DNA of 52,141 nucleotides from the NCBI GenBank assembly GCA_016867855.1, contig VGIO01000001.1, positions 1-52,141 on the forward strand, written 5' to 3'. This document shows, in pieces, positions 10,148-37,392 of this stretch; the stretch's first letter is position 1, and every line of letters starts with the position of its first letter. A program made the translations under genes and the position numbers. The notes beneath the pieces were generated by a model that saw nothing but the letters and a program-made list of their open reading frames with translations, searched no databases and was not told the origin of the DNA. Origin of the DNA: Calditrichota bacterium. Lineage in GTDB: Bacteria > Electryoneota > AABM5-125-24 > Hatepunaeales > Hatepunaeaceae.

Positions 10148-10222
10148 GGGCGATTAGCTCAGTTGGTCCAGAGCGCCTGCCTTACAAGCAGGAGGTCGTT
10201 GGTTCGAACCCAATATCGCCCA
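10148..10222 (+). tRNA. tRNA-Val (anticodon TAC)
   Basis: 75-nt cloverleaf folded by hand. Acceptor GGGCGAT/ATCGCCC, D stem GCTC/GAGC, anticodon stem CCTGC/GCAGG with loop CTTACAA, T arm GTTGG-TTCGAAC-CCAAT. No encoded CCA. Confidence 0.95.
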
Positions 10223-10226
10223 CGGC

Positions 10227-10265
10227 AAGTTGCGGCAGGTTAAAAGACCTGCCTCAACTTTTTTA
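10227..10265 (+). terminator. Rho-independent terminator after tRNA-Val
   Basis: 14-bp stem AAGTTGCGGCAGGT / ACCTGCCTCAACTT (13 of 14 paired), 6-nt loop, followed by a T6 run. Confidence 0.8.
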
Positions 10266-10605
10266 TAGTATTGACGCCGTGCGGTATCTCATCATCGATC
10301 CGCGCTAGACAATTCACAACGGATGGACAGATTAACGGCTGAGGATTGCCGAATGACCGCTTTATTTGTTTGAACTATTGTGCTTCTTTTTTAATTGTTC
10401 AATAATTTAACAATCTTTTCAATCTATCTAATAATCGAGCTGTCCTTAAGTCACGGTTTTCGGAATAATAATCGTAATATATTATGAATACGCTATATAG
10501 AAAATACATATCGGCTACGGCGACTAATGGTTCCAAGCTGTTAATAAATATTATTTAAAATCTGTCAAAAATTTAACGGAATATGTAAAATATTTCTCAA
10601 AGATC

Positions 10606-10634
10606 TTGACAAATGCTGTGAGCCGATATATCTT
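10606..10634 (+). promoter_or_regulatory. Candidate sigma70-type promoter for sat (TTGACA, 17-nt spacer, TATCTT)
   Basis: Perfect -35 hexamer with 17-nt spacing to a weak -10. The host promoter consensus is unknown. Confidence 0.3.
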
Positions 10635-10728
10635 ATACTCGCCTCGGAAAAGGATGCTTGTTCGACGGTATAAATGAATTTAAGCCTAAATAATCCCTAA
10701 ATTTAGCGTCATATTTTTTTAATAAAGA

Positions 10729-10746
10729 TTGTGAATTAATAAACAA
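10729..10746 (+). promoter_or_regulatory. Rex-like operator TTGTGAA-TTAA-TAAACAA upstream of sat
   Basis: 12 of 14 defined positions of the Rex consensus TTGTGAAnnnnTTCACAA. Lies 28 nt upstream of the sat start. Confidence 0.35.
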
Positions 10747-10773
10747 ACTATATAACCAGAGGTTAAATACCCA

Positions 10774-12018
10774 ATGGCCAAAGAAACACTGATAAGTCCG
10801 CACGGTTCAAAGACGTTGCGTCCCTTGCTATTAGTAGGCAAGGAACTCGCCGACGAGAAGAAACGCGCGGCTAAAATGCCGCAGTATAAAATCAGTTCGC
10901 GCGAGGTCGGCGACCTGATAATGCTTGGCATCGGCGGTTTCACCCCGCTGGAAGGTTTTATGACGTATGACGACTGGAAGGGCGTCTGCGTCAATATGAA
11001 AACGGCTTCCGGGCTATTCTGGCCCATCCCCATCACGGTCTCGGTGGACAAAGCCTTCGCCAATAAAATCAAGGCAGGCAAAGAGATTGCGCTTGTCAAC
11101 GAGGAAGACGGCGACTTGATGGCTACGATGACCGTAACCGATAAGTATTCCATCGACAAAGATTATGAATGCAAAGAGGTCTTTAAAACGACCGACCCGG
11201 AACATCCTGGTGTGCAGATGGTGATGGCGCAGAAGGAAATCAACCTCGGAGGTCCGGTCAGGGTTCTTTCCGAAAGCGCTTTTCCGGTCGAATTCAAAGG
11301 TCTCTATCAGCGTCCGGCTGAGAGCCGCGCGATCTTCCAGGAGCGCGGCTGGAAGACCATCGCCGCCCTCCAACTTCGCAATCCTATGCACCGCTCTCAC
11401 GAATACCTCGCCAAGATTGCCATCGAAATTGTGGATGGTCTTTATATCCATCAATTAGTTGGGAAACTGAAGCCCGGCGATATCCCGGCTGATGTGCGCG
11501 TCAAGTGTATCAATGCGCTGGTCGATGGCTATTTCGTGAAATCGTCGGTGCTGATGGGCGGCTACCCGCTCGATATGCGCTATGCCGGTCCACGCGAAGC
11601 GTTGCTGCACGCTGTCTTCCGCCAAAATTTCGGTTGCACGCACCTCATCGTCGGCCGTGATCACGCCGGTGTCGGCAACTACTATGGACCTTTCGACGCG
11701 CAGAAGATTTTCGACGAAATCCCGAAAGGCGCGCTGAAAATCGGTATTCTGCCTATCGACTGGACATTTTTCTGCTATAAGTGCGCCGGGATGGTCTCGA
11801 TGAAAACCTGCCCGCATGGCAAGGAAGACCGCCTGTTTTTGTCCGGCACGGCTTTGCGCAAAGGATTGTCCGAAGGCGCGCCAATTCCAGCCGAATTCAG
11901 CCGGCCCGAGGTGCTGGAAATCCTGCGCGACTATTACGCCGGGCTTGATAAGAAGGTCGAAATCAAGATGCACCAATACGCTACCGGCGAAGTCAAGAAG
12001 CCGGAAGCCAGAGCCTGA
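10774..12018 (+). CDS. sat: Sulfate adenylyltransferase (ATP sulfurylase)
   Basis: 414 aa. Motifs [11 protein letters not shown] and GRDHAGVG, with overall Sat architecture. Confidence 0.95.
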
Positions 12019-12271
12019 TGGGTTTTAGGCTTTGGCTTTAGATAATGATTAATACTAATTCAGTATTTATGGGTCGATTAGTGTTAGTCATTAAATAACT
12101 TATACTTAGGCTAAAATAAATGGTTTCTCGCCAAAGTCAAAAACCTAAAGCCCAAAGTCTACAGCCAAAAGCCAAAAATCAACAACCTGCGCTGAGCGAG
12201 GATTGTTAAGAAAGAAAATTCAGCAATGAATAATTAATCCACCCCCAATCAAATCGCAATGGGAGAAAACG

Positions 12272-12715
12272 ATGCCAAGTTATGTCATCAATGACAAGTG
12301 CGATGGGTGCAAGGCGCTGGACAAGACTGCTTGCCAGCATATTTGCCCCAACGACTTGATGGTCTTGAACAAAGAGACCATGAAGGCTTATAATCGCGAG
12401 CCGGAGATGTGCTGGGAGTGCTACAACTGCGTAAAGATTTGCCCTCAGCAAGCCGTCGAAGTTCGCGGTTATGCCGACTTTGTGCCGTTGGGCGCGACGG
12501 TTTCGCCGCTGCGCTCGACGGATTCGATTATGTGGACCGTCAAATTCCGCAACGGGTTGCTCAAGCGGTTTAAGTTCCCCATCCGGACGACCGCGGAAGG
12601 CACAGCCGTTCCCGATGGCGGATGGCCGACGGCCGGCGACGACCTTAAGAGCCCGGTGCTGTTCACCGAACCGGCCTCGCTTGGGTTGCCCGAAGTATTA
12701 ACCCTTAAAAAGTGA
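12272..12715 (+). CDS. aprB: Adenylylsulfate (APS) reductase beta subunit
   Basis: 147 aa. MPSYVINDKCDGCK..CQHICPNDLM..CWECYNCVKICPQQA ferredoxin core plus the AprB tail. Confidence 0.95.
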   Translation: MPSYVINDKCDGCKALDKTACQHICPNDLMVLNKETMKAYNREPEMCWECYNCVKICPQQAVEVRGYADFVPLGATVSPLRSTDSIMWTVKFRNGLLKRFKFPIRTTAEGTAVPDGGWPTAGDDLKSPVLFTEPASLGLPEVLTLKK

Positions 12716-12725
12716 GGTAAATCCA

Positions 12726-14606
12726 ATGGCTAACTTTGAAACTGTAACCGTCAAGACCGACCTGCTAATCGTCGGCGGCGGAATGGCAGCCTGCGGCGCG
12801 GCGGTCGAAGCCGCCTATTGGGCTAAAAAACACGGACTAAAAGTCGCCTTAGTCGACAAAGCCGCGATGGACCGCTCCGGCGCCGTGGCAATGGGTCTCT
12901 CCGCCATCAACCAGTATGTCGGTCTGAAGGACGGCGAGAACACCCTCACCGACTATGTCAACTATGTCCGTAACGATCTGATGGGCATCACCCGCGAAGA
13001 CCTCGTGGCGAATATTGCCCGTCATGTGGACTCCACCGTCCATCTGTTCGAAAAATGGGGTCTTCCGATATGGAAGGATGCCGAAGGCAAATATGTTCAC
13101 GAAGGCCGCTGGCAGTTGATGATCAACGGCGAATCTTATAAGGTCGTCGTGGCTGAAGCCGCCAAGAATGCCCTTGGAATGGAAAACATATACGAGCGCA
13201 TCTTCATCGTCGGACCGATTATGGATGGCGATAAGTGTATTGGCGCTGTCGGCTTCTCGGTTCGCGAGAACAAATTCTATGTCTTCCTTGCCAAAGCAGT
13301 ATTAGTAGCAATGGGCGGGGCGGTGCATGTGTTCAAGCCGCGTTCGGCTGGCGAAGGTCTCGGCCGCGCCTGGTATCCGCCGTGGAACTCCGGCTCTTCC
13401 TGCTATTTCACCCTGAAAGCCGGTTGTGAGATGACCTGTCAGGAAGTCCGCTTCATCCCGGTGCGCTTCAAGGACGCCTACGGTCCGGTCGGCGCCTGGT
13501 TCCTGCTGTTCAAATCCCGCGCTACCAACGGAGTAGGCGAAGACTATATGGTTACCCGCAAGCCGGAACTCGACAAATGGACACCTTATGGGCATGTCAA
13601 GCCGGTGCCGGCTAACTTGCGCAACTGGCTGATGCTGCTGGATGTCAAGGACGGCAAAGGTCCCATTTTTATGCGCACGGAAGAGGCGATTGGTAAACTC
13701 TCGGCCGCTGCCGCTGACGAGAAAGAGCGCAAGAAGAAGTTGAAGGAACTTGAGTCCGAAGCCTGGGAAGACTTCTTGGATATGACCATTTCGCAGGCGC
13801 TGCTGTGGGCTTCGACGAATGTCGCGCCTGAAGAGCGCGCTTCTGAAATCGCCGCCGCCGAGCCTTATTTCATCGGCTCGCACTCCGGCGCATCCGGCGC
13901 CTGGGTCTCCGGTCCAGAAGACTTGCAGACCTCGCAGACGAAGAACGAATACTTCTGGGGTTATGCCCATATGGCGACCGTTCCCGGTATCTTCTGCGCC
14001 GGCGATGCTTCAGGCGCTTCCTCGCATAAGTTCTCTTCAGGGTCGCACGCCGAAGGCCGCATCTGTGCCAAAGCCGCCATCGCTTACATTGTGGACCACA
14101 ATGTCGAGCCGAAGGTGGACAATGCGAAAATCGAAGCGATGAAAGCCGAAATCCTGAAGCCGCTCGATACCTTCGCAGAGCATAGCAAGTTAACCAGTGA
14201 TGCCGGCATCAATCCTAACTACATCCGTCCGAAGATGTTTATGTTCCGTCTGCAGAAGTTGATGGACGAATATGCGGGCGGCGTCTCGACAGCCTTCACG
14301 ACCTCCAAAGCCAACCTCGAAAAAGGTCTTGAACTGTTGAACTATCTGAAAGAGGATTCAGATAAACTCGGCGCCGAAGACTTGCACGAACTGATGCGCT
14401 GCTGGGAGAACATCCACCGGATGTGGCAGGCTGAAGCCCATGTCCGCACCATTCTCTTCCGCGAAGAGACTCGTTGGCCTGGCTATTACTTTCGCGCCGA
14501 CCTGCCTTCGATGAAAGACGAGTGGAAGGTATTCGCCAATTGCCGTTGGAATCCCGCCACCGGCGAATGGACGATGCTCAAGCGGCCGATTTATCAGATA
14601 TTCTAA
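12726..14606 (+). CDS. aprA: Adenylylsulfate (APS) reductase alpha subunit
   Basis: 626 aa. FAD fold LLIVGGGMAACGAA. AprA-typical sequence throughout. Starts 10 nt after aprB. Confidence 0.95.
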   Translation: MANFETVTVKTDLLIVGGGMAACGAAVEAAYWAKKHGLKVALVDKAAMDRSGAVAMGLSAINQYVGLKDGENTLTDYVNYVRNDLMGITREDLVANIARHVDSTVHLFEKWGLPIWKDAEGKYVHEGRWQLMINGESYKVVVAEAAKNALGMENIYERIFIVGPIMDGDKCIGAVGFSVRENKFYVFLAKAVLVAMGGAVHVFKPRSAGEGLGRAWYPPWNSGSSCYFTLKAGCEMTCQEVRFIPVRFKDAYGPVGAWFLLFKSRATNGVGEDYMVTRKPELDKWTPYGHVKPVPANLRNWLMLLDVKDGKGPIFMRTEEAIGKLSAAAADEKERKKKLKELESEAWEDFLDMTISQALLWASTNVAPEERASEIAAAEPYFIGSHSGASGAWVSGPEDLQTSQTKNEYFWGYAHMATVPGIFCAGDASGASSHKFSSGSHAEGRICAKAAIAYIVDHNVEPKVDNAKIEAMKAEILKPLDTFAEHSKLTSDAGINPNYIRPKMFMFRLQKLMDEYAGGVSTAFTTSKANLEKGLELLNYLKEDSDKLGAEDLHELMRCWENIHRMWQAEAHVRTILFREETRWPGYYFRADLPSMKDEWKVFANCRWNPATGEWTMLKRPIYQIF

Positions 14607-14624: not shown

Positions 14625-14662
14625 GCTATCGCTGTCAACCCTTTGTGGTTGACAGCGATAGC
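14625..14662. repeat. REP-like hairpin of the GCTGTCAACC..GGTTGACAGC family (16-bp perfect stem)
   Basis: GCTATCGCTGTCAACC-CTTTGT-GGTTGACAGCGATAGC, 19 nt after the aprA stop. Confidence 0.9.
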
Positions 14663-14753
14663 GCAATTTAATTGGACATAGTTGACTGAGTGGACATATT
14701 GGAAAATACGAACGCTGTTTGGCTCACAGTCCAATTTTCAGCGGCATAAGAAT

Positions 14754-15029
14754 ATGAATCCTGAAGCCTCCGATATACCGCATTGTCCGCACTGCTTCAA
14801 ACGACTGGCGAAGATGTCCGTCCCGCCCGACGGCGGCTACGACAGCGAGTTCCTCTATGTCTGCTTCAACGACGATTGTCCCTACTACATTCAGGGCTGG
14901 GACTGGATGTTCAGGCAGTATTATGTGCGCGCCTCTTATCGTTACCGCCTCAATCCGCTGACTGGCGGCGAAGGTCCGATAGCGGTTTGGTCGCCGGCCG
15001 CGATGAAAGACCGGATATTATTGGATTAA
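14754..15029 (+). CDS. Small C4 zinc-ribbon protein of unknown function
   Basis: CPHC..(22 aa)..CFNDDC. ATG at 14754 is preferred, because the longer ORF-track start (TTG 14682) lies in a 9-bp repeat block. Confidence 0.55.
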   Translation: MNPEASDIPHCPHCFKRLAKMSVPPDGGYDSEFLYVCFNDDCPYYIQGWDWMFRQYYVRASYRYRLNPLTGGEGPIAVWSPAAMKDRILLD

Positions 15030-15038: not shown

Positions 15039-15869
15039 ATGGATTCACTCGCTAACTTAAAACAAACCATCCTTAAGGACTATCCCCGTTTAAGCGAGCA
15101 GGATGGCTTCGCCTTCGAATGCGGCGCGCATTTGGAATGCTTTAATGTCTGCTGCGCGGATGTGAATATCTTCCTGACGCCATACGATGTGCTGCGGATG
15201 CGGAAGGCAGTCGGATTAGGCTCGGGCGAATTCCTCGCCCGATACACCCTCGTGCCGTTCGATAAATCGCAGCATCTGCCCACACCGCTGCTTAAGATGA
15301 GCGAGACGGAGGGCAAAGCCTGCTATTTTGTGGATGCGTTTAAAGGCTGCACGATTTACAGTCATCGGCCTTGGCCCTGCCGTATGTATCCGTTAGGGTC
15401 GGCATCGCCGGGCGAGACCGAAAAGGACGCCGATCGGCTGTTCTATTTTATGATGCGCGAAGAGTTCTGCCAAGGGCACGGCTGCCCGCATATCTGGACG
15501 GTTGCCGAATGGCTGGAAGACCAAGGCGTCGCCAAATACGCTGAATTCGGCGAGATGTTCAAGGGCATCACCCTGCATCCAGCCTTCAGCAAGGGCTATC
15601 AACTCTCGCCGCAGCAGATTGAGATGTATTGGATCGCGTTGTTCGATCTCGACAAATTCCGTGGTTTTATATTCAGTTCCAGTTTTTTAAAGCGGTTCGA
15701 AATCCCGGCGGATTTTATCGAACTGCTTCGCATCGACGACGAGGCGCTTTTGAAATTCGGCTTCAGCTGGACGGCGCTGGCGCTGTTTGGCGACAAGACG
15801 CTCAATGTGCGCCCCGAGGCGGTTAAAATGCAGCCTCAATTTAATAATAAGAAAAGCAGCCGTGTCTAA
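15039..15869 (+). CDS. YkgJ/UPF0153-family cysteine-cluster (Zn- or Fe-chelating) protein
   Basis: 276 aa. ECGAHLECFNVCC and CYFVDAFKGCTIYSHRPWPCRMYP match the CxxCxxCC-family pattern. Confidence 0.6.
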   Translation: MDSLANLKQTILKDYPRLSEQDGFAFECGAHLECFNVCCADVNIFLTPYDVLRMRKAVGLGSGEFLARYTLVPFDKSQHLPTPLLKMSETEGKACYFVDAFKGCTIYSHRPWPCRMYPLGSASPGETEKDADRLFYFMMREEFCQGHGCPHIWTVAEWLEDQGVAKYAEFGEMFKGITLHPAFSKGYQLSPQQIEMYWIALFDLDKFRGFIFSSSFLKRFEIPADFIELLRIDDEALLKFGFSWTALALFGDKTLNVRPEAVKMQPQFNNKKSSRV

Positions 15870-15950: not shown

Positions 15951-15976
15951 GCTGTCAATCACAGCGGATTGACAGC
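15951..15976. repeat. REP-like hairpin GCTGTCAATC-ACAGCG-GATTGACAGC
   Basis: Same family as 14625, 6092, 6224, 37430 and 37471. Confidence 0.85.
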
Positions 15977-16111: not shown

Positions 16112-17248
16112 ATGTCTGATGTCAAGTTGCTGAAACCGGACAGCGATTTTCAACGCCGTCTGCGGTCTGCAGGCGGCGATTCGTTAAATAAATGCTACCA
16201 ATGCGCGACCTGCGCGGCGGTGTGCAATCTGTCGCCTGAGGCGAAGCCATTTCCACGCAAGGAGATGCTCGCGGCCGGCTGGGGACTCAAAGACGATTTG
16301 ATGACCGACCCGGATGTCTGGCTCTGTTATCAGTGCAACGACTGCTCGGTGCGCTGCCCACGTGGCGCCAAACCGGGCGAAGTGATGGCTGCCGTGCGCA
16401 GTTATGCTTTCGAACATTTCGCCGTGCCGTCGTTTATGGGCCGGGCATTGAACAATCCAGCAGCGCTGCCGCTCCTGTTTTTAATTCCAATTTTGGTCAT
16501 TGGCGCGTTGCTGTTCATTCACACCGGTTTCGATTTTTCGCCTTTACACGCCGGCGATGTAGAATACCGGCTGTTCATTCCCCACGGCTATATCGAGATG
16601 CTGTTCATCAGCGGCAATGTCTTTATCTTCGCTTTAGCGGCGCTGGGACTACTGAAATATTACAACGGGATGCAGCGTGCTTGGGGGAGCGGGCAGATAG
16701 GTTTTATACGCGCGGTTTATGAGACAATTTTAGAGATTATCACGCACAACCGCTTCGAAAAGTGCGATACCAATCGCTACCGAAAACTGGCGCATTTTCT
16801 CATATTCTTTGGCTTTATGGGCGCGATGGCGACCGCCGGACTGGCGCTGATAGCGATGGTTGTATTTCATTACGGCCCGCCGATTGAGATGTCGCATCCT
16901 ATCAAGTGGCTGGGCAACGCCAGCGGCATCGCGATGGTGGTAGGCTTGACGATTGTCATCGTCCAGCGCGGCGGCAATGCCGAACGTGCTGGAAAGCCAA
17001 ATTACAGCCATTGGCTCTTCATCTGGATGACCCTGTCGGTTGCTGCAACCGGTCTGCTGACGCAAATTATGCGGCTTATTAATGAACCGGTTTTAGCCTA
17101 TCCGATGTATTTCGTGCATTTAGTCGCGGTCTTTTTCCTACTATGGTATGCGCCTTACAGCCAGCTCGGACATATGTTTTACCGCACGATTGCGCTGGTC
17201 TATGCGCGCAGCATCGACCGGCAGCCGCGCGCCTTGAAAGCAGCGTAG
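16112..17248 (+). CDS. qmoC: Quinone-interacting membrane-bound oxidoreductase subunit C (HdrC-like 2x[4Fe-4S] N-terminus fused to an HdrE/NarI-like haem b membrane domain)
   Basis: 378 aa. Motifs CYQCATCAAVCNL and CYQCNDCSVRCPRG, followed by about six TM helices. Confidence 0.85.
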   Translation: MSDVKLLKPDSDFQRRLRSAGGDSLNKCYQCATCAAVCNLSPEAKPFPRKEMLAAGWGLKDDLMTDPDVWLCYQCNDCSVRCPRGAKPGEVMAAVRSYAFEHFAVPSFMGRALNNPAALPLLFLIPILVIGALLFIHTGFDFSPLHAGDVEYRLFIPHGYIEMLFISGNVFIFALAALGLLKYYNGMQRAWGSGQIGFIRAVYETILEIITHNRFEKCDTNRYRKLAHFLIFFGFMGAMATAGLALIAMVVFHYGPPIEMSHPIKWLGNASGIAMVVGLTIVIVQRGGNAERAGKPNYSHWLFIWMTLSVAATGLLTQIMRLINEPVLAYPMYFVHLVAVFFLLWYAPYSQLGHMFYRTIALVYARSIDRQPRALKAA

Positions 17249-27011: not shown

Positions 27012-27142
27012 CCTCAAAGGCGGGACATTTTCGCCAAAGTCGAGGAATTAGGCGGTTGGTATGTCGCATAGATAATAGTATTCTTTATATAAAAATAACT
27101 TCGCGTTTCGATGCGAAGCCAACAACATCAAGGAGAAACACA

Positions 27143-27489: not shown

Positions 27490-27527
27490 GGGGGGTATCG
27501 GCGGAATTTCGATTGGTACCCCCTTTT
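27490..27527 (+). terminator. Rho-independent terminator after dsrC
   Basis: GGGGGTA..TACCCCC stem followed by TTTT, 30 nt after the stop. Flanked by the direct repeats TTAGCGATTT. Confidence 0.6.
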
Positions 27528-27949
27528 AATTTAGCGATTTTGTTGCCAATCGTTATCTCATACCAATTTGCAATCAAATGATGAGTAATATGATTCTAAA
27601 TTAACAACGGATTGAACGGATAAAACGGATTAACATAGCGGCTTCACAAATTTATCCGTTTCATCTGTTTAATCTGTTGTGAATTTGTTTTTGACATTTA
27701 TCATCCGATTGATTGCGACTTGGTATCACCATAACTATACGAGATTGCTATATTACGGACGTTGGTCTCCATTGAGCAGCAACCGTATTGTGATTTAAGA
27801 ATGTTGCTATCGAAAAAAGAGTCTCGATAGCAAAACGCTTTATACATCAGTTTATCAGTGCAAACTGGCGACATCTTCGTTATTAAGCAAACGAGTTATT
27901 AGTTATTAAAATTATAGCCTTTAGGAAAACTCAAACCTTGAACCGTTAA

Positions 27950-28876: not shown

Positions 28877-30476
28877 ATCACTTAAAGTCTCGGATATCAG
28901 CCATCCGGTCGAACAACTTGCCCAAGTTCGTCCCGATGAATTGATGCCTTTACCGCCGCCTTACGATAAAATCGAAGAGCAGCCCGGATGGAAAGAGATT
29001 AGTCCGGCACAACGTCAAAAATATGAAGCCTCATTAGACGGGGTTGTGGCTGTAGGCGTGCCAATACCCGCCACTGCCGAGGAAGAGGACCGACTCGTTG
29101 AAGGATTTCTATCCGGCCTAAAGAAGTTACTCACAAAGGAGAACAACTGGACTTTTCTACAACAGTTGATGCTCTCAATAGATCATTGCGCAAGATGTCA
29201 GAATTGTATCGAAACGTGTCCTATCTATGTCTCAAGTGGTTACAATGATATTTATCGACCAACTTTTCGCAGCGATCTTTTTAGACGGTTGGTTTCTAAA
29301 TACATAAAACCGGGCGGCAAGTATTTCGGCGAGTTAAAACAAGGCGCGATCGAGTTAAATTGGCGCACTGTCAGCCGATTATTAGAACTTGCTTATCGTT
29401 GCACACTTTGTCGGCGTTGTGCTCATGCCTGTCCTATTGGATTGGGAAATGCGCTAATAACTCATGAACTAAGAAAGTTATTTAGTATGGAATTTGGCTA
29501 CTCGCCAAAAGAGATACATGATAAAGGTTCGATGCTGCAACTCAAAGTGGGTTCATCTACGGGGATGAACAGATTAGCGGTAATGGATAATGTCGAATTT
29601 ATCGATGAAGATATGAGTGATCTTACCGGGCTTAGTGTTAAGAGCGTCTGGGATAAGGAAGGCGCTGATGTTTTATTGATACATAACGCCGGTGAATTTA
29701 TTTCCTGGCCTGAAAATCCTGGAGCATTTGCTTTAATTCTTGAGGCTGCCGGCATCAGTTGGACACTATCAAGTGAACTGGCTGGGTATGATGGTATAAA
29801 TTATGGGCTTTGGTATGACGACGCGCAGTTCGCCCGCGTAGCATTGTTGCACGCACAGGCAGCCAAGAAACTGAAGGTCAAGAAAATCGTAATCGGCGAG
29901 TGTGGTCACGCACATAAAGCCTTAACCGTCATTGCCGATCGCATTCTGACCGGCGACCTAAGCGTCCCTCGCGAGAGCGCGCTTGTCCTGTTACGTGAGA
30001 TTGTAATGTCCGGCAAACTCAAGTTGGACCCATCGCGCAATGACTTTCCGATAACACTCCACGATCCGTGTAATATGGTGCGTCTGATGGGCATCGTCGA
30101 ACCACAGCGGGAAATACTCCGTAAGATTGCCCCTAAATTCCGCGAGATGGAGCCACACGGGGTGTATAATTACTGCTGCGGCGGCGGTTCCGGCTTTGCC
30201 ATTATGTCGCCCTTCAACTTCCAGGACTGGCGGCTCTCAGTGTCCGGTCGAATGAAACTGAAGCAAATTGTCGAAGCCTTCGCCGATTGCCCAGGCCCAG
30301 AAACGCCCAAGTATCTTTGCGCACCCTGCTCCAATTGTAAGGGTCAAATCCGCGATCTATTCCGTTATTACGGCGTCTGGGAAAAGCAGCGCATCCTTTA
30401 CGGCGGACTGGTCGAACTCATCGTCAACGCGATGGTGGACATAAAAGAACCTTTTATCAAATGGGAATTTCATTGA
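28821..30476 (+). CDS. DsrK-like HdrD-family FeS protein with CCG domains (paralogue)
   Basis: CARCQNCIETCP, CTLCRRCAHACP, CCG motifs HDPCNMV and YCCGGGSG. The more likely start is TTG 28869, 6 nt after AAGGAG, giving an 8-nt overlap with the upstream stop. Confidence 0.7.
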   Translation: MGRKTGSILCLPKETKLPKSLKVSDISHPVEQLAQVRPDELMPLPPPYDKIEEQPGWKEISPAQRQKYEASLDGVVAVGVPIPATAEEEDRLVEGFLSGLKKLLTKENNWTFLQQLMLSIDHCARCQNCIETCPIYVSSGYNDIYRPTFRSDLFRRLVSKYIKPGGKYFGELKQGAIELNWRTVSRLLELAYRCTLCRRCAHACPIGLGNALITHELRKLFSMEFGYSPKEIHDKGSMLQLKVGSSTGMNRLAVMDNVEFIDEDMSDLTGLSVKSVWDKEGADVLLIHNAGEFISWPENPGAFALILEAAGISWTLSSELAGYDGINYGLWYDDAQFARVALLHAQAAKKLKVKKIVIGECGHAHKALTVIADRILTGDLSVPRESALVLLREIVMSGKLKLDPSRNDFPITLHDPCNMVRLMGIVEPQREILRKIAPKFREMEPHGVYNYCCGGGSGFAIMSPFNFQDWRLSVSGRMKLKQIVEAFADCPGPETPKYLCAPCSNCKGQIRDLFRYYGVWEKQRILYGGLVELIVNAMVDIKEPFIKWEFH

Positions 30477-30520: not shown

Positions 30521-31036
30521 ATGAGAAACGCTGAATTGAACGCGGTTAAGGCGGCGATTTTGGAGCGCTGGCGCGAGGCGATTATAGCCACCTATCCGGT
30601 CGAGGCTCGCAGGTATCTGCAAGACAATCGCAGCCGGTTCAGCAACCCCATCGGGCTGGCGGTCGAACAAGCCAGCGCCGAAGTGTTGGACTACATTTTC
30701 GCCGCGGACGGCGCGGCGCTGAATTGCGAAGCGTTAATCGACCTCATCCGCATCCGCGGCGTGCAGGATTGGACAGCGTCGCAAGCGGTCGGCTTCATCG
30801 ACGAACTGCGCGACATTATCCACCGCCACTTATGGTCGCCTGTTTATATGCAAGGTCGGACGGAAGTCTATTTTCGCTGGCTGCGGCGCCTCGATGCCGT
30901 TGAACTGGCAGCGTTTGACATCTATGTCGCGCAGCGCGAGAAACTTGCCGATATTCGCGTCGACGAATTCCGGCGCCGCTATGCTAAAATTATTGAGAGA
31001 AGTGGAAAGTTTGAAAGTGAGAGAGTAAGAAAGTGA
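30521..31036 (+). CDS. RsbRD-N-terminal-domain-like protein in the DsrT position
   Basis: 171 aa directly upstream of dsrM. Pattern ..ILERWREAIIATYP..FSNPIG..IRIRGVQDW.ASQAVGF.. The last about 11 codons are read from an 8-bp repeat block. Confidence 0.5.
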   Translation: MRNAELNAVKAAILERWREAIIATYPVEARRYLQDNRSRFSNPIGLAVEQASAEVLDYIFAADGAALNCEALIDLIRIRGVQDWTASQAVGFIDELRDIIHRHLWSPVYMQGRTEVYFRWLRRLDAVELAAFDIYVAQREKLADIRVDEFRRRYAKIIERSGKFESERVRK

Positions 31037-31106: not shown

Positions 31107-32099
31107 ATGAGAATTTTGTTCTCTCTGGCGGCGGTTTTAGCGCTCCTATTAGTGGCTTATGTCGGAGTTGCAGCGGCCGGGGGGAGTTACTTTTTCCTGG
31201 TCGTATTTCCCTATTTAGCGCTGGCTGCCTTTTTCATAGGGATAATTTATCGCATTCTGAAGTGGGCTGGGGCGCCAGTGCCGTTTCATATCCCGACTAC
31301 TTGCGGGCAGCAGAAATCGCTGGGCTGGATTAAACCCGCCAAATTGGAAGCGCCATCTACGACCTGGCAGGTTATTGGTCGGATGGCTTTGGAAATCCTG
31401 CTGTTTCGTTCGCTGTTCCGCAACACCAAGGCAGAACGCGTGCCGGGCGAAAAGGTCGTCTATGGCTCCTGCAAATGGCTCTGGGCTGCCGGGCTGGCAT
31501 TCCACTGGTCCTTTCTTATCGTCTTTATCCGCCATCTGCGGCTGTTTCTCGAGCCGATTCCGCAAGCCATGATTTGGCTGGAGAACCTCGATGGCTTCTT
31601 TCAGGTCAGCGTGCCGGGCGTGCTGATTACGGATATAATACTGCTGTCGGCCATTACTTTCCTATTTCTGCGGAGGATCTTTAGCCGGCAGATACGATAC
31701 ATTTCGCTAGCGGCGGATTATTTCCCCCTGTTCTTAATCTTCGGCATCGCCGCCACCGGCGTCCTGATGCGGCACTTCTTCAAGGTTGACCTTAAAGCCG
31801 TCAAGCAATTCGCCATCGGGCTGGTATCGTTCAGCCCGTTGCAGCCGGAAGGACTAGGTATAATTTTCTATCTGCATATATTTTTAGTGTTCGTCTTAAT
31901 CGCCTATTTTCCGTTCAGCAAACTGATGCATATAGGCGGTATTTTCTTAAGTCCGACGCGCAATCTGGCTAACAACAGCCGCGCTGTGCGGCATATAAAT
32001 CTGTGGAATCCCAAAGTCAAAATGCACTCTTATCAGGAATGGGAAGATGAATTCCACGATTTAATCATCGGCGCCGGTCTGCCTTTGGATAAGGAGTAA
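31107..32099 (+). CDS. dsrM: DsrM, membrane dihaem cytochrome b of the DsrMKJOP complex
   Basis: 330 aa NarI-like membrane protein. GGAG RBS. First gene of a tightly coupled M-K-J-O-P series. Confidence 0.85.
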   Translation: MRILFSLAAVLALLLVAYVGVAAAGGSYFFLVVFPYLALAAFFIGIIYRILKWAGAPVPFHIPTTCGQQKSLGWIKPAKLEAPSTTWQVIGRMALEILLFRSLFRNTKAERVPGEKVVYGSCKWLWAAGLAFHWSFLIVFIRHLRLFLEPIPQAMIWLENLDGFFQVSVPGVLITDIILLSAITFLFLRRIFSRQIRYISLAADYFPLFLIFGIAATGVLMRHFFKVDLKAVKQFAIGLVSFSPLQPEGLGIIFYLHIFLVFVLIAYFPFSKLMHIGGIFLSPTRNLANNSRAVRHINLWNPKVKMHSYQEWEDEFHDLIIGAGLPLDKE

Positions 32100-32101
32100 G
32101 G

Positions 32102-33718
32102 ATGGCGGAAAAACTACCCAAACCATCGGAGATGGCGCAGGTCGAATTTAAGCCGCAGCCACAGGGCTGGATGGATCCGAAGGTTCAATTCCACAAAGGC
32201 ACCTTCAACTACGGCTTCAATCCGCGCAGCGCCGAGTATCTCGACCTTCCCAATCCACGCAAGTGGAATCCAACCGCGGAAGACTGGCATCTGCCGCCGA
32301 ATTGGAAGGAGATTATACTCGATGGGCTGCGCGATCGGCTGCAACGTTTTCGCAGCCTGCAGGTCTTTATGGACATTTGCGTGCGCTGCGGCGCCTGCGC
32401 TGACAAGTGCCACTACTTCATCGGCTCCGGCGACCCGAAGAATATGCCGGTGTTGCGCGCTGAACTTCTACGCTCGGTCTATCGCAAGGATTTCACTACC
32501 GCCGGAAAACTGATGGGCAAAATGGCTGGCGCCCGCGAGTTGACCGTCGATGTGCTGAAAGAGTGGTTCTATTATTTTCACCAATGCACTGAATGCCGGC
32601 GCTGCTCGGTCTTTTGTCCTTACGGCATAGACACAGCGGAAATCACCATCATCGCCCGTGAACTGTTGAATTTGGTCGGCTTGGGCATCGACTGGATTGT
32701 AACCCCAGCCGCGAACTGCTTCCGCACCGGCAACCACCTCGGCATCCAGCCGCACGGCTTCAAAGACTCGGTGGAATTCGCCGTCGATGATTTGGAAGAA
32801 ATCACCGGCGTGCGGGTTGAGCCGTCGATCAACCGCAAAGGCGCCGAAGCGCTGTTCGTTATGCCTTCCGCCGACTACTTCGGCGATCCCCATTACTTCG
32901 GATTTTTAGGCTATTTGGCTCTGTTGCACGAAGTCGGACTGGATTACACCTTCAGCGCTTTCGCGTCCGAAGGCGGCAACTTCGGTCTGTTTCACTCCAA
33001 CGAGATGATGAAGCGGTTGAATGCCAAAATCTACGAAGAAGCCAAACGGCTGAAGGTTAAATGGATTTTAGGCGGTGAATGCGGGCATATGTGGCGCGTG
33101 CTGCATCAATATATGGACACGATGAATGGTCCGGCGGATTTTCTCGAAGTTCCCCGCTCACCGATAACCGGCACGGTCTTCGATAACGCCCGCTCGACCA
33201 AGATGGTGCATATCTGCGAGTTCACCGCTGATTTGCTTTATCATAACAAACTTAAAATCGACCCATCGCGCAACGACGATTTCCGTGTAACCTTCCACGA
33301 CTCGTGCAACACGGCGCGGGCGATGGGCATTTTAGAGGAACCGCGATATATCATCAACAAAGTTTGCAACTATTTTTACGAGATGCCGGAGAACACTATT
33401 CGCGAGCAGACATTTTGCTGCGGCAGCGGGTCGGGTTTAGGCACGGATGAGAATCTGGAGATGCGCCTTCGGGGCGGCTTGCCGCGCGGCAGCGCGGTGA
33501 AGTTTGTGCGCGAGAAGCATAATGTGAACACTCTCGCTTGTATCTGCGCCATCGACAAAGCCACCCTGCCGGCTGTGATGGACTACTGGGCGCCGGGCGT
33601 GCAGGTCTGCGGCGTGCACGAATTGGTCGGCAACGCCCTGATTATGCGAGGCGAAAAGGCGCGCGCGACCAACCTGCGCGGCGAACCTTTGCCGGGAAAG
33701 GAGCAGACGGATGAATGA
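32102..33718 (+). CDS. dsrK: DsrK, HdrD-like catalytic FeS subunit
   Basis: 538 aa. CVRCGACADKC, CTECRRCSVFCP, CCG motifs FHDSCNT and FCCGSGSG. Confidence 0.9.
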   Translation: MAEKLPKPSEMAQVEFKPQPQGWMDPKVQFHKGTFNYGFNPRSAEYLDLPNPRKWNPTAEDWHLPPNWKEIILDGLRDRLQRFRSLQVFMDICVRCGACADKCHYFIGSGDPKNMPVLRAELLRSVYRKDFTTAGKLMGKMAGARELTVDVLKEWFYYFHQCTECRRCSVFCPYGIDTAEITIIARELLNLVGLGIDWIVTPAANCFRTGNHLGIQPHGFKDSVEFAVDDLEEITGVRVEPSINRKGAEALFVMPSADYFGDPHYFGFLGYLALLHEVGLDYTFSAFASEGGNFGLFHSNEMMKRLNAKIYEEAKRLKVKWILGGECGHMWRVLHQYMDTMNGPADFLEVPRSPITGTVFDNARSTKMVHICEFTADLLYHNKLKIDPSRNDDFRVTFHDSCNTARAMGILEEPRYIINKVCNYFYEMPENTIREQTFCCGSGSGLGTDENLEMRLRGGLPRGSAVKFVREKHNVNTLACICAIDKATLPAVMDYWAPGVQVCGVHELVGNALIMRGEKARATNLRGEPLPGKEQTDE

Positions 33719-34106
33719 CCGCGGGAAAATTGTCGCCGGTCTGATTATCTTCCTTGTTTTGATTACCACGCCGATTTGGATGAACCTCGTCGCTGAAGGC
33801 GACGCTGAAGGACCAGAAATCGAAATCCTCACCAAAGATGTTCCGGGACAGGATAAATGCGTCAAATCCAAGACCGAAATGGCCGCGCAGCATATGGACT
33901 TGCTGAACACCTGGCGAGACGAGGTCGTGCGGTCTAAGGCGCGGGTTTATCAAACCGCCGACGGACGCTATTATGCGAAAAGCCTGACGCATACCTGTCT
34001 GAAATGCCATTCCAACAAGGACAAGTTCTGCGACCGCTGCCATATTTATGTCGGCGTTAACCCTTATTGTTGGGATTGTCATAACGAGCCGAAGGAGTTT
34101 AAATGA
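33711..34106 (+). CDS. dsrJ: DsrJ, periplasmic trihaem cytochrome c
   Basis: 131 aa. N-terminal anchor and three CxxCH sites (CLKCH, CDRCH, CWDCH). Confidence 0.9.
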   Translation: MNDRGKIVAGLIIFLVLITTPIWMNLVAEGDAEGPEIEILTKDVPGQDKCVKSKTEMAAQHMDLLNTWRDEVVRSKARVYQTADGRYYAKSLTHTCLKCHSNKDKFCDRCHIYVGVNPYCWDCHNEPKEFK

Positions 34107-34870
34107 GCGATTTTACCAGACGGGATTTCGTTAAAGCCGCCAGCGTATCGCTCACGATTTTGGCTCTCAAGCCGGCAGCTAATTTGCTGGCTTTGGAGAG
34201 TCTGCCGGAGTTGTCGCCGCTGATGGCAAAACGCTGGGCGTTAGCCATCGACCTGCGCAAGTGTCTGGAAGAAAAGAACTGCGTCAAGTGCATCGAGATG
34301 TGCCATTTTGTTCACAATGTCCCGCATTTCGCCAAACCTAAGGATGAAGTGAAATGGATTTGGAAGGAGTCGTTTGAGGCGGCATTTGCCGAGCAGGACC
34401 ATCCATTTTTAAGCGCGGATGTCAAGGTCAGCCATCCGTTAGTGATGTGCAATCATTGCGCCAATCCGCCATGTGTTAAGGTTTGTCCGACGCAGGCGAC
34501 TTGGAAGCGCGAGCCGGACGGCGTGGTGATGATGGATTGGCATCGCTGCATCGGCTGCCGCTACTGCATTGCAGCGTGTCCGTACGGTTCGCGCAGTTTC
34601 AATTGGCGCGATCCAAAGCCGTTCATCAAGAAACTGCAGCCGGACTTTCCTTCGCGGATGCGCGGCGTGGTCGAGAAATGCAATTTCTGCGAGGAGCGGC
34701 TGGCTAAAGGGCAGTTGCCGGCATGCGTGGAAGCCTGCGAAGCCAAAGCGATGGTCTTTGGGGATATCGAAGACGCCGACAGCGACATCCGCTGCCTGCT
34801 GCAGACGCGTTTCTCGCTGCGGCGCAAGCCGTCGCTCGGCACACAACCCTATATCTACTACCTGGTGTGA
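34103..34870 (+). CDS. dsrO: DsrO, periplasmic FeS ferredoxin-like subunit (Tat signal)
   Basis: 255 aa. Twin-arginine signal RRDFVKAAS; CNHCANPPCVKVCP, CIGCRYCIAACP, CNFCEERL. Confidence 0.9.
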   Translation: MSDFTRRDFVKAASVSLTILALKPAANLLALESLPELSPLMAKRWALAIDLRKCLEEKNCVKCIEMCHFVHNVPHFAKPKDEVKWIWKESFEAAFAEQDHPFLSADVKVSHPLVMCNHCANPPCVKVCPTQATWKREPDGVVMMDWHRCIGCRYCIAACPYGSRSFNWRDPKPFIKKLQPDFPSRMRGVVEKCNFCEERLAKGQLPACVEACEAKAMVFGDIEDADSDIRCLLQTRFSLRRKPSLGTQPYIYYLV

Positions 34871-34877
34871 GGTGTAA

Positions 34878-36035
34878 ATGATTGAAAAAGCCTTACAAGG
34901 CGATAGACGTTATTGGACCTGGCTGCTCATTTTAGGGGCGGTCATCGCAGCCGGAACCGGCTTTTATCTCAAGCAGTTTCACACCGGCTTGACCATCACC
35001 GGGCTAAGCCGCGATGTATCATGGGGATTTTACATCGCCCAGTTCACCTTTCTGGTCGGCGTGGCCGCCTCGGCGGTGATGCTCGTGCTGCCTTACTATC
35101 TGCATAATTACAAAGCCTTCGGCAAAATCACCATCCTCGGCGAGTTCGTCGCCATCGCTGCGGTCATTATGTGCGTAACATTCATATTTGTCGATTTGGG
35201 TCAGCCTTTCCGGATGTTGAATATATTTCTGCATCCTTCGCCGAGTTCGCTGATGTTTTGGGATACGATTGCGCTGGGAGGTTATATGTGTTTGAATGTG
35301 CTTATCAGTTATATAACTTTAAAAGCCGAGAGTAAAACGCTGCCGCCGCCGAAATGGATTAAGCCGATAATTCTAATTTCTATTCCGTGGGCGATTAGCA
35401 TCCACACTGTTACGGCGTTTTTATATTCGGGTTTAGTTGCCCGGCCGTTCTGGATGACGGCGGTGCTGGCGCCGCGCTTTTTAGCCTCGGCGTTTGCCTC
35501 CGGTCCATCGCTGCTGATACTGCTCTGTTTGATTCTTAAACGTTTCGCCAGTTTCGATGTCGGCCGGGAGGCTTTGAGAAAATTGGCTGAAATTGTAACC
35601 TATGCGATGACGGTGAATGTGTTTTTCATCCTGATGGAGTTCTTCACGACCTTCTACAGCGGCATACCGGAACACGCCGAACATTTCGACTATCTCATCC
35701 ACGGGCTGGAGGGCAAGCATGGCTTGACGCTGTGGATGTGGATTTCGTGGATTATAGCGGCGGCGACCTTAGTGCTGCTCATTAATCCCGGCACCCGGCG
35801 CAGCGAGAAAATCCTGCCTTGGACGGCGCTGCTGGTCGTCGTTTCGATATGGATAGATAAGGGGATGGGGATGGTCGTAACCGGCTTTGTGCCGACGCCG
35901 CTGGGGCATATAACCGAGTATTTTCCGACTCTGCCGGAATTGATGATTTCACTGGCGATATACGGAATGGGGATGTTTATTGTGACGATATTTTACAAAG
36001 TGGCTCTTTCGGTGCGAAGCGCAGTCGCGAGATAA
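34878..36035 (+). CDS. dsrP: DsrP, NrfD/PsrC-family integral membrane subunit
   Basis: 385 aa, about ten TM helices, last gene of the dsrMKJOP series. Confidence 0.85.
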   Translation: MIEKALQGDRRYWTWLLILGAVIAAGTGFYLKQFHTGLTITGLSRDVSWGFYIAQFTFLVGVAASAVMLVLPYYLHNYKAFGKITILGEFVAIAAVIMCVTFIFVDLGQPFRMLNIFLHPSPSSLMFWDTIALGGYMCLNVLISYITLKAESKTLPPPKWIKPIILISIPWAISIHTVTAFLYSGLVARPFWMTAVLAPRFLASAFASGPSLLILLCLILKRFASFDVGREALRKLAEIVTYAMTVNVFFILMEFFTTFYSGIPEHAEHFDYLIHGLEGKHGLTLWMWISWIIAAATLVLLINPGTRRSEKILPWTALLVVVSIWIDKGMGMVVTGFVPTPLGHITEYFPTLPELMISLAIYGMGMFIVTIFYKVALSVRSAVAR

Positions 36036-36195
36036 TGATAAAGGTTTTATATTTAAAGTATGCAGAAAAAGTTATTTTACGGATTGGCGCGCGCTGTAAT
36101 TCAGGCCGGGAGCGCGGCAGGCAAGGATGTCCGCCTGGCGGTTTCTTGGGAGATTTCTCTTTCAGCAGACTCTATGATGCGGGGAATTTGAAATT

Positions 36196-37392
36196 ATGCA
36201 TATCATCTGCTGCGGTATAAGCCACCGAACGGCGCTGCTGGAGATGCGCGAGCATTTCCAACTCACGCCGCAGGAACTGACCGAGGCGACGAGCGCTTAC
36301 AAAGCGCTGACCGGCGCCGTGGAAGCCGTGCTGGTGGTCTCTTGCAACCGGATGGAATTCTACTCGGTAACGGACAAGAAGTATGATCCGCGGCTGAAAC
36401 TGGTCGAATTTTATCGAGCGCGCGGCATAGGGATGCCACCCGAATATGCCGAACTCTTTTTTGTGCGACACGGCGCGAGCGCGGCGCGGCACCTGTTTAA
36501 AGTGGCTTGCGGTTTAGATTCGTTAGTAATGGGTGAGAGCCAGATTCTCGGGCAGGTTAAGGACGCTTACAGCGCGGCTTGCGCCTGCGGAGGCCCGGGA
36601 CATCTGTTGCATAAACTGTTTCATAAAGCCTATTACACCGCCAAGAAAGTCCGCACCGAGACCACAATCAGCGAGGGCGTAACCGGCCTGGCCGGCGCGT
36701 CGGTCGATGTCGCGCGCAAGAAACTCGAAGTCTGCAATTCCTGCTGTAATGTCCTGCTCATCGGCGTCAACTCATCTACGGAAATTATCCTCTCGCGCCT
36801 GTCGCGCTTTGCGGATAGTTTTACCGTTGTTAATCGAACCTTGTCCAAGGCTGAACGTTTAGTGAGGTCTTATGGCGGGCGCGCTTTTAATCTGGATAAA
36901 CTACCGGAGTTGCTGGCTGAAACCGATGTGTTGTTCAGCGCGACCTCTTCGCGCGGTTATATTTTGACACCCGATATGCTGTCGTCGCGCTCGACGCGCC
37001 CCCTGCTGGCATTCGACTTGGCGGTGCCGCGCGACCTGCACCCGGGTGTGGCGAGCGTTCCAGGCGTTACATTAATCGATTTAGACGACCTCAAGCATTA
37101 TTTGGCGATGGTGTCGCGGCAGCGGGCGTCGGAAGTGCAATATGCTTTGCAGATAGTTGAGGAGCAGGTTGCCGAGTTCGAACAGTGGCGGCTGGCAGCG
37201 TCGCGAACGGATTCGGCGCTGCGGTTGTTGGTCGAACAGGACCGGCAGGCGTTTGTGGAGAAGTTCCACGCCAGTTTTGCGCCTAAAGAGCATAAGGCGC
37301 TGGAAGCCTTTTCGCGTCAAATCTGCCGCGCCGTGCTGCGGCGCTGCGCAGCCAAACCGCAGCTGGCGGCAAATGGAAATGAAGAACAATAG
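36196..37392 (+). CDS. hemA: Glutamyl-tRNA reductase
   Basis: 398 aa. MHIICCGISHRTA.., active-site SCNRMEFY, GLDSLVMGESQILGQVK. Confidence 0.9.
   Translation: MHIICCGISHRTALLEMREHFQLTPQELTEATSAYKALTGAVEAVLVVSCNRMEFYSVTDKKYDPRLKLVEFYRARGIGMPPEYAELFFVRHGASAARHLFKVACGLDSLVMGESQILGQVKDAYSAACACGGPGHLLHKLFHKAYYTAKKVRTETTISEGVTGLAGASVDVARKKLEVCNSCCNVLLIGVNSSTEIILSRLSRFADSFTVVNRTLSKAERLVRSYGGRAFNLDKLPELLAETDVLFSATSSRGYILTPDMLSSRSTRPLLAFDLAVPRDLHPGVASVPGVTLIDLDDLKHYLAMVSRQRASEVQYALQIVEEQVAEFEQWRLAASRTDSALRLLVEQDRQAFVEKFHASFAPKEHKALEAFSRQICRAVLRRCAAKPQLAANGNEEQ

Follow-up and report, generated by a model that had tools for sequence, protein, structure and literature searches.

How did the complete apparatus of dissimilatory sulfate reduction come to stand in single file, on one strand, in a genome whose neighbouring genes look like those of the Fibrobacteres-Chlorobi-Bacteroidetes (FCB) group? 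The question is raised by 52,141 nt of DNA, referred to here as the window, which comprise positions 1-52,141 of the forward strand of contig VGIO01000001.1 from a Calditrichota bacterium (GCA_016867855.1). Between a tRNA-Val gene and recA, at 10774-37392, lies a 26.6 kb cluster in which every long open reading frame (ORF) is on the plus strand: sat, aprBA, two small conserved ORFs, qmoCAB, dsrAB, an 85-aa DsrD-like ORF, dsrN and a dsrL of predicted type 2, followed by dsrC, a pair of dsrMK paralogues, dsrT, dsrMKJOP and hemA. A preliminary description of this DNA had read the run either as a laterally acquired island or as a consolidation particular to the lineage. We lean towards regarding it as a long-resident chromosomal supercluster for the canonical dissimilatory sulfate reduction pathway, a reading that we would put somewhat above even. 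The useful new fact is a sister site, between the same tRNA and recA genes, that retains only dsrC.

The unusual pairing of pathway and flanks, and nothing beyond it, might suggest that a sulfur locus of Desulfobacterota type had been joined to FCB-type flanks by assembly or binning, an explanation that the evidence from other samples renders vanishingly improbable. The window's Sat recurs on 12 and its HemA on seven other contigs, all from other samples, and 12 such contigs are colinear with the window, without rearrangement, at 99.7-100% identity. The left junction is crossed by L088 (6408-16021) and L090 (8524-14508), the hemA/recA junction by L093 (32871-46445) and L094 to L098, and the independent assemblies that span the two junctions without rearrangement come from at least nine other samples. 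Furthermore, the nearest relatives of DsrB, DsrP and Sat belong to FCB-labelled metagenome-assembled genomes (MAGs) with the same cluster. A chimeric contig is ruled out by the colinear contigs across 10.2 kb and 37.4 kb; the contig is sound and the cluster no assembly artefact. A JGI sample series among the sources (3300020074 to 3300020603) probably represents water-column metagenomes of Lake Tanganyika. Several independent assemblies share a breakpoint (10398, the first position of both L087 and L089; 38110, inside recA, where L094 and L095 break off; and 38904, the last position of L096 and L097), a coincidence that suggests strain variation or repeats at these three positions.

A search with RecA returned about 60 closely grouped sequences, 77-90% identical, below which identity falls to 74% or less. 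The named members of this group are Calditrichaeota or Calditrichota bacterium MAGs, at 90% and 80%, and the RecA proteins of Zixibacteria and KSB1 stand at about 70% to that of the window; in a RecA scan of species-representative genomes, the matches listed were 61-68% identical and came from mixed phyla. The best named matches of DsrB and DsrP are from Calditrichota (76%), Zixibacteria (73-77%), Electryoneota (Electryoneaceae, Hatepunaea) and Latescibacterota, with no Desulfobacterota among the named matches of either protein. Submitter labels are inconsistent, one DsrB cluster at 90% identity mixing Calditrichaeota, Hatepunaea and Bacteroidota. By its RecA the host is an uncultured FCB-group bacterium in the clade that NCBI labels Calditrichota, and RecA and the Dsr proteins point to the same Calditrichota-like FCB neighbourhood. 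The comparison of marker and sulfur genes that the preliminary description had called for thus gives agreement on FCB lineages at the level of the best named RecA, DsrB and DsrP matches. Its account of FCB-like flanks is borne out by a Por_Secre_tail domain on the right (38631-38942, E 8.8e-11) and a PD40/Omp85 protein on the left, together with a weak match to DUF3098. Electryoneota are known to carry sulfate-reduction genes (PMC9324843), one of them, Tariuqbacter, in a dsr operon with two divergent dsrK copies and an NSR gene (PMC10439189, Fig. 3), and the full Dsr pathway, with dsrD and dsrL-2, has been described from Zixibacteria and AABM5-125-24 (PMC10591310). That an FCB genome should have the pathway is by itself already known and no longer surprising.

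The arrangement of the genes is shared as well. Three related loci carry the cluster: contig SRR13131472_67776 (L081/L083, DsrB 86% identical to that of the window), a JGI contig (L082/L084, 81%) and the Calditrichota MAG GCA_042585405.1 from NCBI (L185/L086, 76%, G+C content (GC) 46%). The first runs from aprA through two small ORFs, qmoCAB, dsrAB, the 85-aa ORF, dsrN, dsrL, dsrC, a dsrMK pair and dsrT to dsrMKJOP, and continues after dsrP with an NSR-like CoA-disulfide-reductase/rhodanese gene, hemA, a siroheme-synthase N-domain gene and a cobA/hemD fusion; the second keeps the same order, dsrMK pair included. In the MAG, which is colinear with the window gene for gene, sat, aprBA, the small ORF, the CxxCxxCC protein gene, qmoCAB, dsrAB, an 86-aa ORF, dsrN, dsrL, dsrC, dsrT and dsrMKJOP follow one another on one strand, and the NSR-like gene, hemA and siroheme genes through cobA/hemD come after dsrP; only the window's extra dsrMK pair is missing. 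With this gene order found in a Calditrichota MAG and in two metagenome contigs, the consolidation must be old and shared, and predates the window genome. The consolidation proposed earlier is real, whereas its restriction to one lineage is not, the order recurring in the MAG (DsrB 76%) and in two other lineages; a consolidation unique to the window genome is ruled out by the same order in these three.

Other metagenome loci of the sat-anchored and related set (L100, L108, L118, L122) show parts of the same picture, L108 and L118 having sat, aprBA, the small ORF, the CxxCxxCC protein gene and qmoC. The flanks of the cluster vary among lineages, as in L100, where a pyrophosphatase gene and no tRNA stands 5' of sat. 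In none of 18 related loci does a tRNA adjoin sat; the sole tRNA is a tRNA-Arg in L122, about 1.4 kb upstream of dsrC, which there precedes sat. The pyrophosphatase of L100 (11-2263, directly 5' of a sat whose product is 81% identical to that of the window) is of the ion-translocating membrane type and has no counterpart in the window; its place would make functional sense, for it would remove the pyrophosphate formed by Sat. An extra 149-aa ORF of no family stands between dsrN and dsrL at L083 384-833 (L081 10772-11221), again with no window counterpart. In the relatives a siroheme cassette opens with hemA, which has the NSR-like gene before it and the siroheme-synthase N-domain gene and cobA/hemD behind (L083 11155-16269, L084, L086). 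A fragment search of the window, its gaps at 36036-36195 and 37393-37498 included, found no remnants of the NSR-like, siroheme-synthase or cobA/hemD genes, and the cassette of the window has been cut short, with all three of these genes absent.

The closest relative of the host tells a different story. Neighbour-joining of the RecA clade places the window beside P0242, the RecA of contig FWPV01015799.1 (GCA_900174595.1, GC 43%), referred to as L179. Its genes read ccsB, PD40/Omp85 protein, DUF3098-like ORF, tRNA-Val, dsrC, recA (on the opposite strand) and mcm, with identities to the window of 71% for CcsB, 77% for the PD40/Omp85 protein, 97% for tRNA-Val (nucleotides), 79% for DsrC, 90% for RecA and 84% for Mcm. 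In this one such relative seen, dsrC is the only cluster gene at the tRNA-Val/recA site; it has the same orientation as in the window, encodes both cysteines, and is furnished with a terminator as well as a strong ribosome-binding site. The stem of that terminator, GGGGGTATC, is common to the window and L179 only, being found in none of L081, L082 and L086, which argues that the two dsrC units are orthologous. Nothing else aligns at the breakpoints between window and L179 outside the tRNA and the dsrC unit. Relative to L179 the window has two additional blocks, one of about 16.9 kb from sat to dsrL between the tRNA and dsrC, the other of about 10 kb from the dsrMK pair to hemA between dsrC and recA. 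Farther out in the RecA clade, recA stands in another context (cinA, ligT, recA, recX), so the arrangement of mcm, recA and tRNA-Val is a shared derived trait of the window and L179. The preliminary description had predicted an empty site between tRNA-Val and recA; L179 supplies the flanks, but dsrC is still there and the site is not empty. Nor do all relatives carry the same locus, as that description would have expected of vertical inheritance.

If the cluster had come recently from elsewhere, its composition might betray it. The coding GC of left flank, cluster and right flank is 0.535, 0.540 and 0.554, and the GC at third codon positions (GC3) 0.626, 0.636 and 0.634. Tetranucleotide frequencies of the cluster correlate with those of its own flanks at r 0.959 (0.895 in the z-score version), and those of the left flank with the right at 0.934 (0.787). 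The orthologous clusters of the relatives fit the window's flanks far less (L081/L083, r 0.770 and z-score 0.585; L082/L084, 0.773 and 0.667; L086, 0.197 and 0.425), so the match between cluster and flanks is no by-product of gene content. The cluster bears the host genome's own tetranucleotide signature and is fully adapted to its host. Composition over 10.7-36 kb, which the preliminary description had wished to see set against both flanks, is thus uniform and host-specific and, on that description's own terms, argues against recent transfer.

Repeats particular to this genome are found inside and outside the cluster. A palindrome resembling repetitive extragenic palindromic (REP) elements, GCTGTCAAY-N-RTTGACAGC, occurs in five exact copies in the window against zero expected, and is absent from all fetched loci of the relatives; a degenerate copy lies at 6089-6119. 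At 6040-6249, between ccsB and the Omp85 gene, the palindrome belongs to a 78-nt unit that is present twice, the copies being 96% identical. A second family of hairpins, about 80 nt long with repeated ACRGAT-type motifs, is represented 5' of tRNA-Val (9994-10069) and in the dsrC-dsrM spacer (27597-27685) by two copies about 70% alike, and by a partial copy at 10316-10345; it could be a MITE-like (miniature inverted-repeat transposable element) repeat or a binding array for a regulator. Arrays of CCTAAAG/AAGCC heptamers occupy 45852-46160, in a 105-nt higher-order repeat with a GGCGGGCAGGGACGCCCGC hairpin, and related pieces stand in the sat-aprB spacer (12109-12188) and in the left flank (4282-4358, a hairpin with perfect arms of 28 nt, and about 9815-9840).

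At the left edge of the cluster the preliminary description had seen tRNA-Val, a terminator and an AT-rich spacer, and all three are indeed there, the tRNA being the sole match in an Rfam search of the window. Together with a sister in which most of the cluster is missing from this site, the edge could mark a mobile genomic island that had recently entered the genome at tRNA-Val, and known tRNA-associated islands resemble the locus in just these respects, a tRNA at one edge and a close relative without most of the segment. They differ from it in other respects. There is no integrase, transposase or conjugation gene among all the ORFs of the 52-kb window; the 26-nt 3' end of the tRNA is unique in the window at up to three mismatches, and its 14-nt end has only two 12/14 matches, both within distant genes. 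Family searches of the ORFs and searches for the tRNA end thus agree with the earlier statement that integrase and duplicated tRNA 3' end are lacking. The cluster shares the genome-specific composition of its flanks, where an island would be expected to contrast, and contains the host's own REP-like elements. Its 550-bp spacer has 33.8% GC, and other intergenic regions of both flanks have 33-46%; as AT-rich spacers are the rule in the window, the one before sat is an ordinary promoter region and no boundary mark. No tRNA stands beside sat in the related loci, and in L179 the tRNA adjoins dsrC, itself a cluster gene that is present at the supposedly empty site. A mobile island at the tRNA, contradicted by the absence of integrase and attachment-site (att) repeats and by host-like composition, is highly improbable.

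Gene order bears on the direction of change at the site. All other lineages seen have dsrC enclosed by dsrL on one side and dsrM/dsrT on the other, which makes an ancestral full cluster the more parsimonious state, one that calls for no coincidence. We infer, with modest confidence on the favourable side of even, that the cluster was ancestral at this site and that its two flanking blocks were lost or relocated in the sister. The colinear arrangement would then predate the split from other Calditrichota-like lineages; the ancestor shared by the window and L179 would have had the full cluster between tRNA-Val and recA; the L179 lineage would later have lost or relocated both blocks around dsrC; and the neighbouring tRNA-Val would be incidental, no integration site.

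Several observations weigh against long residence followed by loss. Loss would need two separate deletions or translocations in L179 that spared dsrC, and the dsrC so spared has the look of a functional gene, an oddity if the pathway has gone. The window's DsrC is 79% identical to that of L179 and 83-86% identical to those of L081, L086 and L082, the opposite of what RecA shows, and it could mean that the window's dsrC arrived with a foreign cluster. The outgroup status of L081, L082 and L185 is an assumption, and identity at synonymous sites is saturated, at 41-58% in all comparisons, so that it provides no clock. Composition excludes only a recent transfer, or one from a compositionally different donor, and one sub-block, the extra dsrMK pair, is itself anomalous in composition, in the window genome only.

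The main rival is a gain after the split from the L179 lineage, in which the ancestor had only tRNA-Val, dsrC and recA, and the two blocks, or a whole foreign cluster that displaced the resident dsrC, came by an old lateral transfer within the FCB group and have since been completely ameliorated. The flanks of L179 adjoin with only dsrC between them, the window's DsrC is nearer to those of L081, L086 and L082, possible donors of similar GC exist (L081 51%, L082 56%, L100 56%), close DsrB counterparts in the database exist for few members of the RecA clade (only four DsrB sequences of at least 79% identity against about a dozen RecA sequences of at least 85%), and transfer of dsr genes between phyla is known (PMC10591310). 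Two insertions, however, would have had to recreate the order dsrL, dsrC, dsrMK, dsrT of independent lineages, which would be a striking coincidence, and the terminator stem common to the window and L179 speaks for the window's dsrC being the resident orthologue. The lack of integrase and boundary repeats counts against this gain too, as do the host-specific repeats inside the cluster and a tetranucleotide signature that is the host's and is absent from the clusters of the candidate donors. We consider such a gain rather unlikely. In a more daring version, which we think quite unlikely, the tRNA-Val/recA site would switch sulfate respiration in and out as two cassettes of transcription-unit size around a permanent, independently transcribed dsrC, and the window lineage, once split from its sister, would have gained both from another FCB lineage. 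If true, the site would document how a bacterium turned into a sulfate reducer, through modular gain of genes around a dsrC already in place.

The ancestral supercluster that we favour is built from identifiable parts, and the run of sulfur genes from sat to hemA on a single strand that was reported earlier is confirmed by gene families and coordinates (Table 1). The curated cut-offs used are those of NCBIfam, and were passed by sat, aprB, aprA, qmoC, dsrA, dsrB, the dsrC family, dsrM, dsrK, dsrJ, dsrO, dsrP and hemA.

Table 1. Position, strand and supporting evidence of the features of the sulfate-reduction cluster and its borders in the 52,141-nt window
Feature	Coordinates	Strand	Evidence and remarks
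tRNA-Val (anticodon TAC)	10148-10223	+	ARAGORN; Rfam, 73.5 bits; left neighbour, outside the cluster
Terminator-like hairpin of the tRNA (10234-10253, T run after it) and AT-rich spacer	10224-10773	+	promoter-like sites 5' of sat
sat, sulfate adenylyltransferase	10774-12018	+	NF003166, 504 bits (cut-off 387)
aprB, APS reductase	12272-12715	+	TIGR02060, 201 bits, above cut-off
aprA, APS reductase	12726-14606	+	TIGR02061, 905 bits, above cut-off
115-aa ORF (gene callers: shorter 91-aa start)	14682-15029	+	no family
276-aa CxxCxxCC protein	15039-15869	+	PF03692
qmoC	16112-17248	+	NF038018, 409 bits (cut-off 300)
qmoA, HdrA-like, 423 aa	17444-18715	+	homology and position
qmoB, HdrA-like, 742 aa, MvhD/FlpD-type C-terminus	18715-20943	+	homology and position
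dsrA	21135-22307	+	TIGR02064, 557 bits, above cut-off
dsrB	22515-23597	+	TIGR02066, 486 bits, above cut-off
85-aa ORF, DsrD-like	23615-23872	+	position after dsrB; no family at threshold
dsrN, CobB-type a,c-diamide synthase	23872-25293	+	TIGR00379, 406 bits
dsrL, predicted type 2, NADPH-type iron-sulfur flavoprotein	25323-27011	+	NF009410, 579 bits
dsrC	27140-27460	+	TIGR03342, 112 bits; own ribosome-binding site; own terminator (27490-27528)
dsrM-like gene of the extra pair	27950-28876	+	NarI match weak
dsrK-like gene of the extra pair	28821-30476	+	318.6 bits, below the DsrK cut-off of 400
dsrT-position gene	30521-31036	+	RsbRD_N domain, PF14361, E 2.7e-12
dsrM, dsrK, dsrJ, dsrO, dsrP	31107-36035	+	NF038037, NF045796, NF038038, NF045797, NF045798, all above equivalog cut-offs
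hemA, glutamyl-tRNA reductase	36196-37392	+	TIGR01035, 286 bits
hemA/recA junction	37393-37498		hemA terminator hairpin and two REP-like palindromes
REP-like palindrome, left flank	6224-6249		exact copy
REP-like palindrome, in the cluster	14631-14656, 15951-15976		exact copies
REP-like palindrome, hemA/recA junction	37430-37455, 37471-37495		exact copies

No dedicated QmoA or QmoB model matched qmoA or qmoB, both of which have the expected sizes; the qmo genes stand in the order C-A-B, adjoining the aprBA side, identically in the relatives. The claim that no unrelated gene interrupts the series calls for a qualification: between aprA and qmoC stand two ORFs of no known role. Orthologues of both, the 115-aa ORF and the CxxCxxCC protein, occupy the same position in L081, L082, L108, L118 and L185, and the pair are possible accessory parts of an Apr/Qmo module. 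A CxxCxxCC gene at 35-40% identity is also seen near more distant apr/qmo loci. The series dsrABDN named in the preliminary description stands for dsrA and dsrB, which exceed their cut-offs; dsrD is not confirmed by the sequence searches, and the role of dsrN, as a putative siroheme amidase, is assigned from position. The product of dsrL, read from its translation, has an N-terminal cysteine pattern of the Fer4_20 type, a Pyr_redox_2 core and, at the C-terminus, a 2x[4Fe-4S] pattern with the motifs CxxCxxCxxxC and CxxCxxCxxxCP, and its NAD(P) domain carries the YRR motif as LLYRRT. By domain order (N-terminal ferredoxin, FAD/NAD(P) domains, linker, C-terminal 2x[4Fe-4S] ferredoxin) and YRR motif, the published criteria (PMC7596348), it is classed as a probable DsrL of type 2. 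The C-terminus of DsrC reads GACKVAGLAKPTGCV, with both conserved cysteines present. As dsrC has a ribosome-binding site and a terminator of its own, the cluster consists of several transcription units.

The protein in the dsrD position stayed below significance in every comparison with DsrD. Its gene is kept directly after dsrB in L081, L082 and L086. A permissive E-value search matched Pfam DsrD at E 0.046 in one of four orthologues; single-sequence and profile searches of the PDB found no DsrD match; and hhalign gave E 0.5 against an approximate sequence of D. vulgaris DsrD. An AlphaFold2 single-sequence model of low confidence, with a predicted local distance difference test (pLDDT) score of 53, has three helices and two strands.

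Of the relatives, L081 and L082 have the extra dsrMK pair and the Calditrichota MAG (L185/L086) does not. In the window the GC3 of the pair is 0.49-0.50, that of the neighbouring genes 0.62-0.70, and nowhere else in the window is the tetranucleotide match so low (r 0.83). The deviation in GC3 occurs only in the window genome, the orthologues in L081 and L082 conforming to their own clusters, and patchwise replacement of the pair is a possibility.

Taken together the genes provide the canonical pathway, with Sat, AprB, AprA, DsrA, DsrB and DsrMKJOP all in place and QmoABC complete, QmoA and QmoB by size and homology. Sat would activate sulfate to adenosine 5'-phosphosulfate (APS), which AprBA would reduce to sulfite with electrons from QmoCAB. 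DsrAB would reduce sulfite onto DsrC, and DsrMKJOP, probably with the extra DsrMK pair, would reduce the resulting DsrC trisulfide, releasing sulfide and linking the process to the quinone pool. DsrL-2 may feed electrons from NADPH to DsrAB, and DsrN and HemA would serve the siroheme cofactor.

That the metabolism runs reductively we infer from the lack of dsrEFH, the genes in the dsrT and dsrD positions and the way in which the nearest phyla have been scored in the literature. The pathway might instead be oxidative or disproportionating, and thus no sulfate respiration at all, since DsrL is present and DsrL-2 is also found in sulfur oxidisers and disproportionators, where it accompanies oxidative DsrAB (PMC10591310, PMC7596348); moreover, DsrD, a marker of reductive operation, stays below significance in the 85-aa ORF, which is unverified as DsrD. 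Both points weigh against sulfate respiration. Yet no dsrEFH genes occur in the cluster, the dsrT-position gene is accompanied by a dsrD-position ORF conserved in all the relatives, and closely related DsrB proteins belong to Zixibacteria and AABM5-125-24, phyla that have been scored as reductive, with dsrD and dsrL-2 (PMC10591310). An oxidative or disproportionating role is, on balance, decidedly improbable.

Beyond the cluster, the genes are of the housekeeping kind: the left flank contains pmbA, queA, an EamA transporter gene, ccsB, the gene of the peptidase-PD40-Omp85 protein and the small DUF3098-like ORF, and the right flank recA, the gene of a protein with a type IX secretion system (T9SS) tail, and those of methylmalonyl-CoA mutase and an M23 peptidase, panB, prmC and others. 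In the tailed protein a perfect fivefold GAATTTG run (38877-38911, within 38631-39966, minus strand) lies between a 378-aa ORF and the 103-aa T9SS C-terminal sorting domain. The two are in different frames and resemble one cargo gene split by the heptamer run, within which two independent contigs, L096 and L097, terminate. The run is a candidate for slipped-strand phase variation, as the gain or loss of one unit would shift the frame.

In Desulfovibrio (Nitratidesulfovibrio) vulgaris and other Desulfobacterota the genes are found at several loci, with qmo in the order A-B-C and dsrL absent. The enzymes and the logic of the pathway are the same in these model sulfate reducers, with aprBA beside qmo and dsrMKJOP in one operon; the window differs in its single strand of 26.6 kb, its qmo order C-A-B, the two ORFs before qmoC, dsrL-2 and a second dsrMK pair. 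Mussmann and colleagues, writing in J Bacteriol in 2005, reportedly found a "metabolic island" of sulfate-respiration genes on environmental fosmids and read it as a sign of concomitant horizontal transfer. There, as here, sat, apr, qmo and dsr are contiguous in an uncultured organism, whereas the composition, repeats and synteny of the window favour long residence and mainly vertical maintenance. The dsr sets of the FCB candidate phyla (Electryoneota/AABM5-125-24, Zixibacteria and Calditrichota; PMC10439189, PMC9324843, PMC10591310) are the closest in kind, with sat, aprAB, qmoABC, dsrABC, a dsrD-type ORF, dsrL-2 and dsrMKJOP in an FCB host and, in Tariuqbacter, two divergent copies of dsrK as in the window (PMC10439189). 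From these sets the window is distinguished by the missing NSR-like gene after dsrP and the missing siroheme-synthase and cobA/hemD genes after hemA, and by neighbours, tRNA-Val and recA, that it has in common with one sister contig only.

Sulfate reduction outside the Desulfobacterota is known from many phyla represented by MAGs only, and its acquisition has mostly been argued from single-gene trees. This locus is a cleaner case: a complete, contiguous and independently re-assembled cluster, with colinear counterparts and a sister site that holds only dsrC. It also yields accessory candidates for the pathway, namely the small ORF and CxxCxxCC protein before qmoC, the divergent protein in the DsrD position and the second DsrMK pair. 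Above all, the pair formed by the window and L179 makes the gain or loss of sulfate respiration in Calditrichota-like FCB lineages directly testable by comparison of the two bins.

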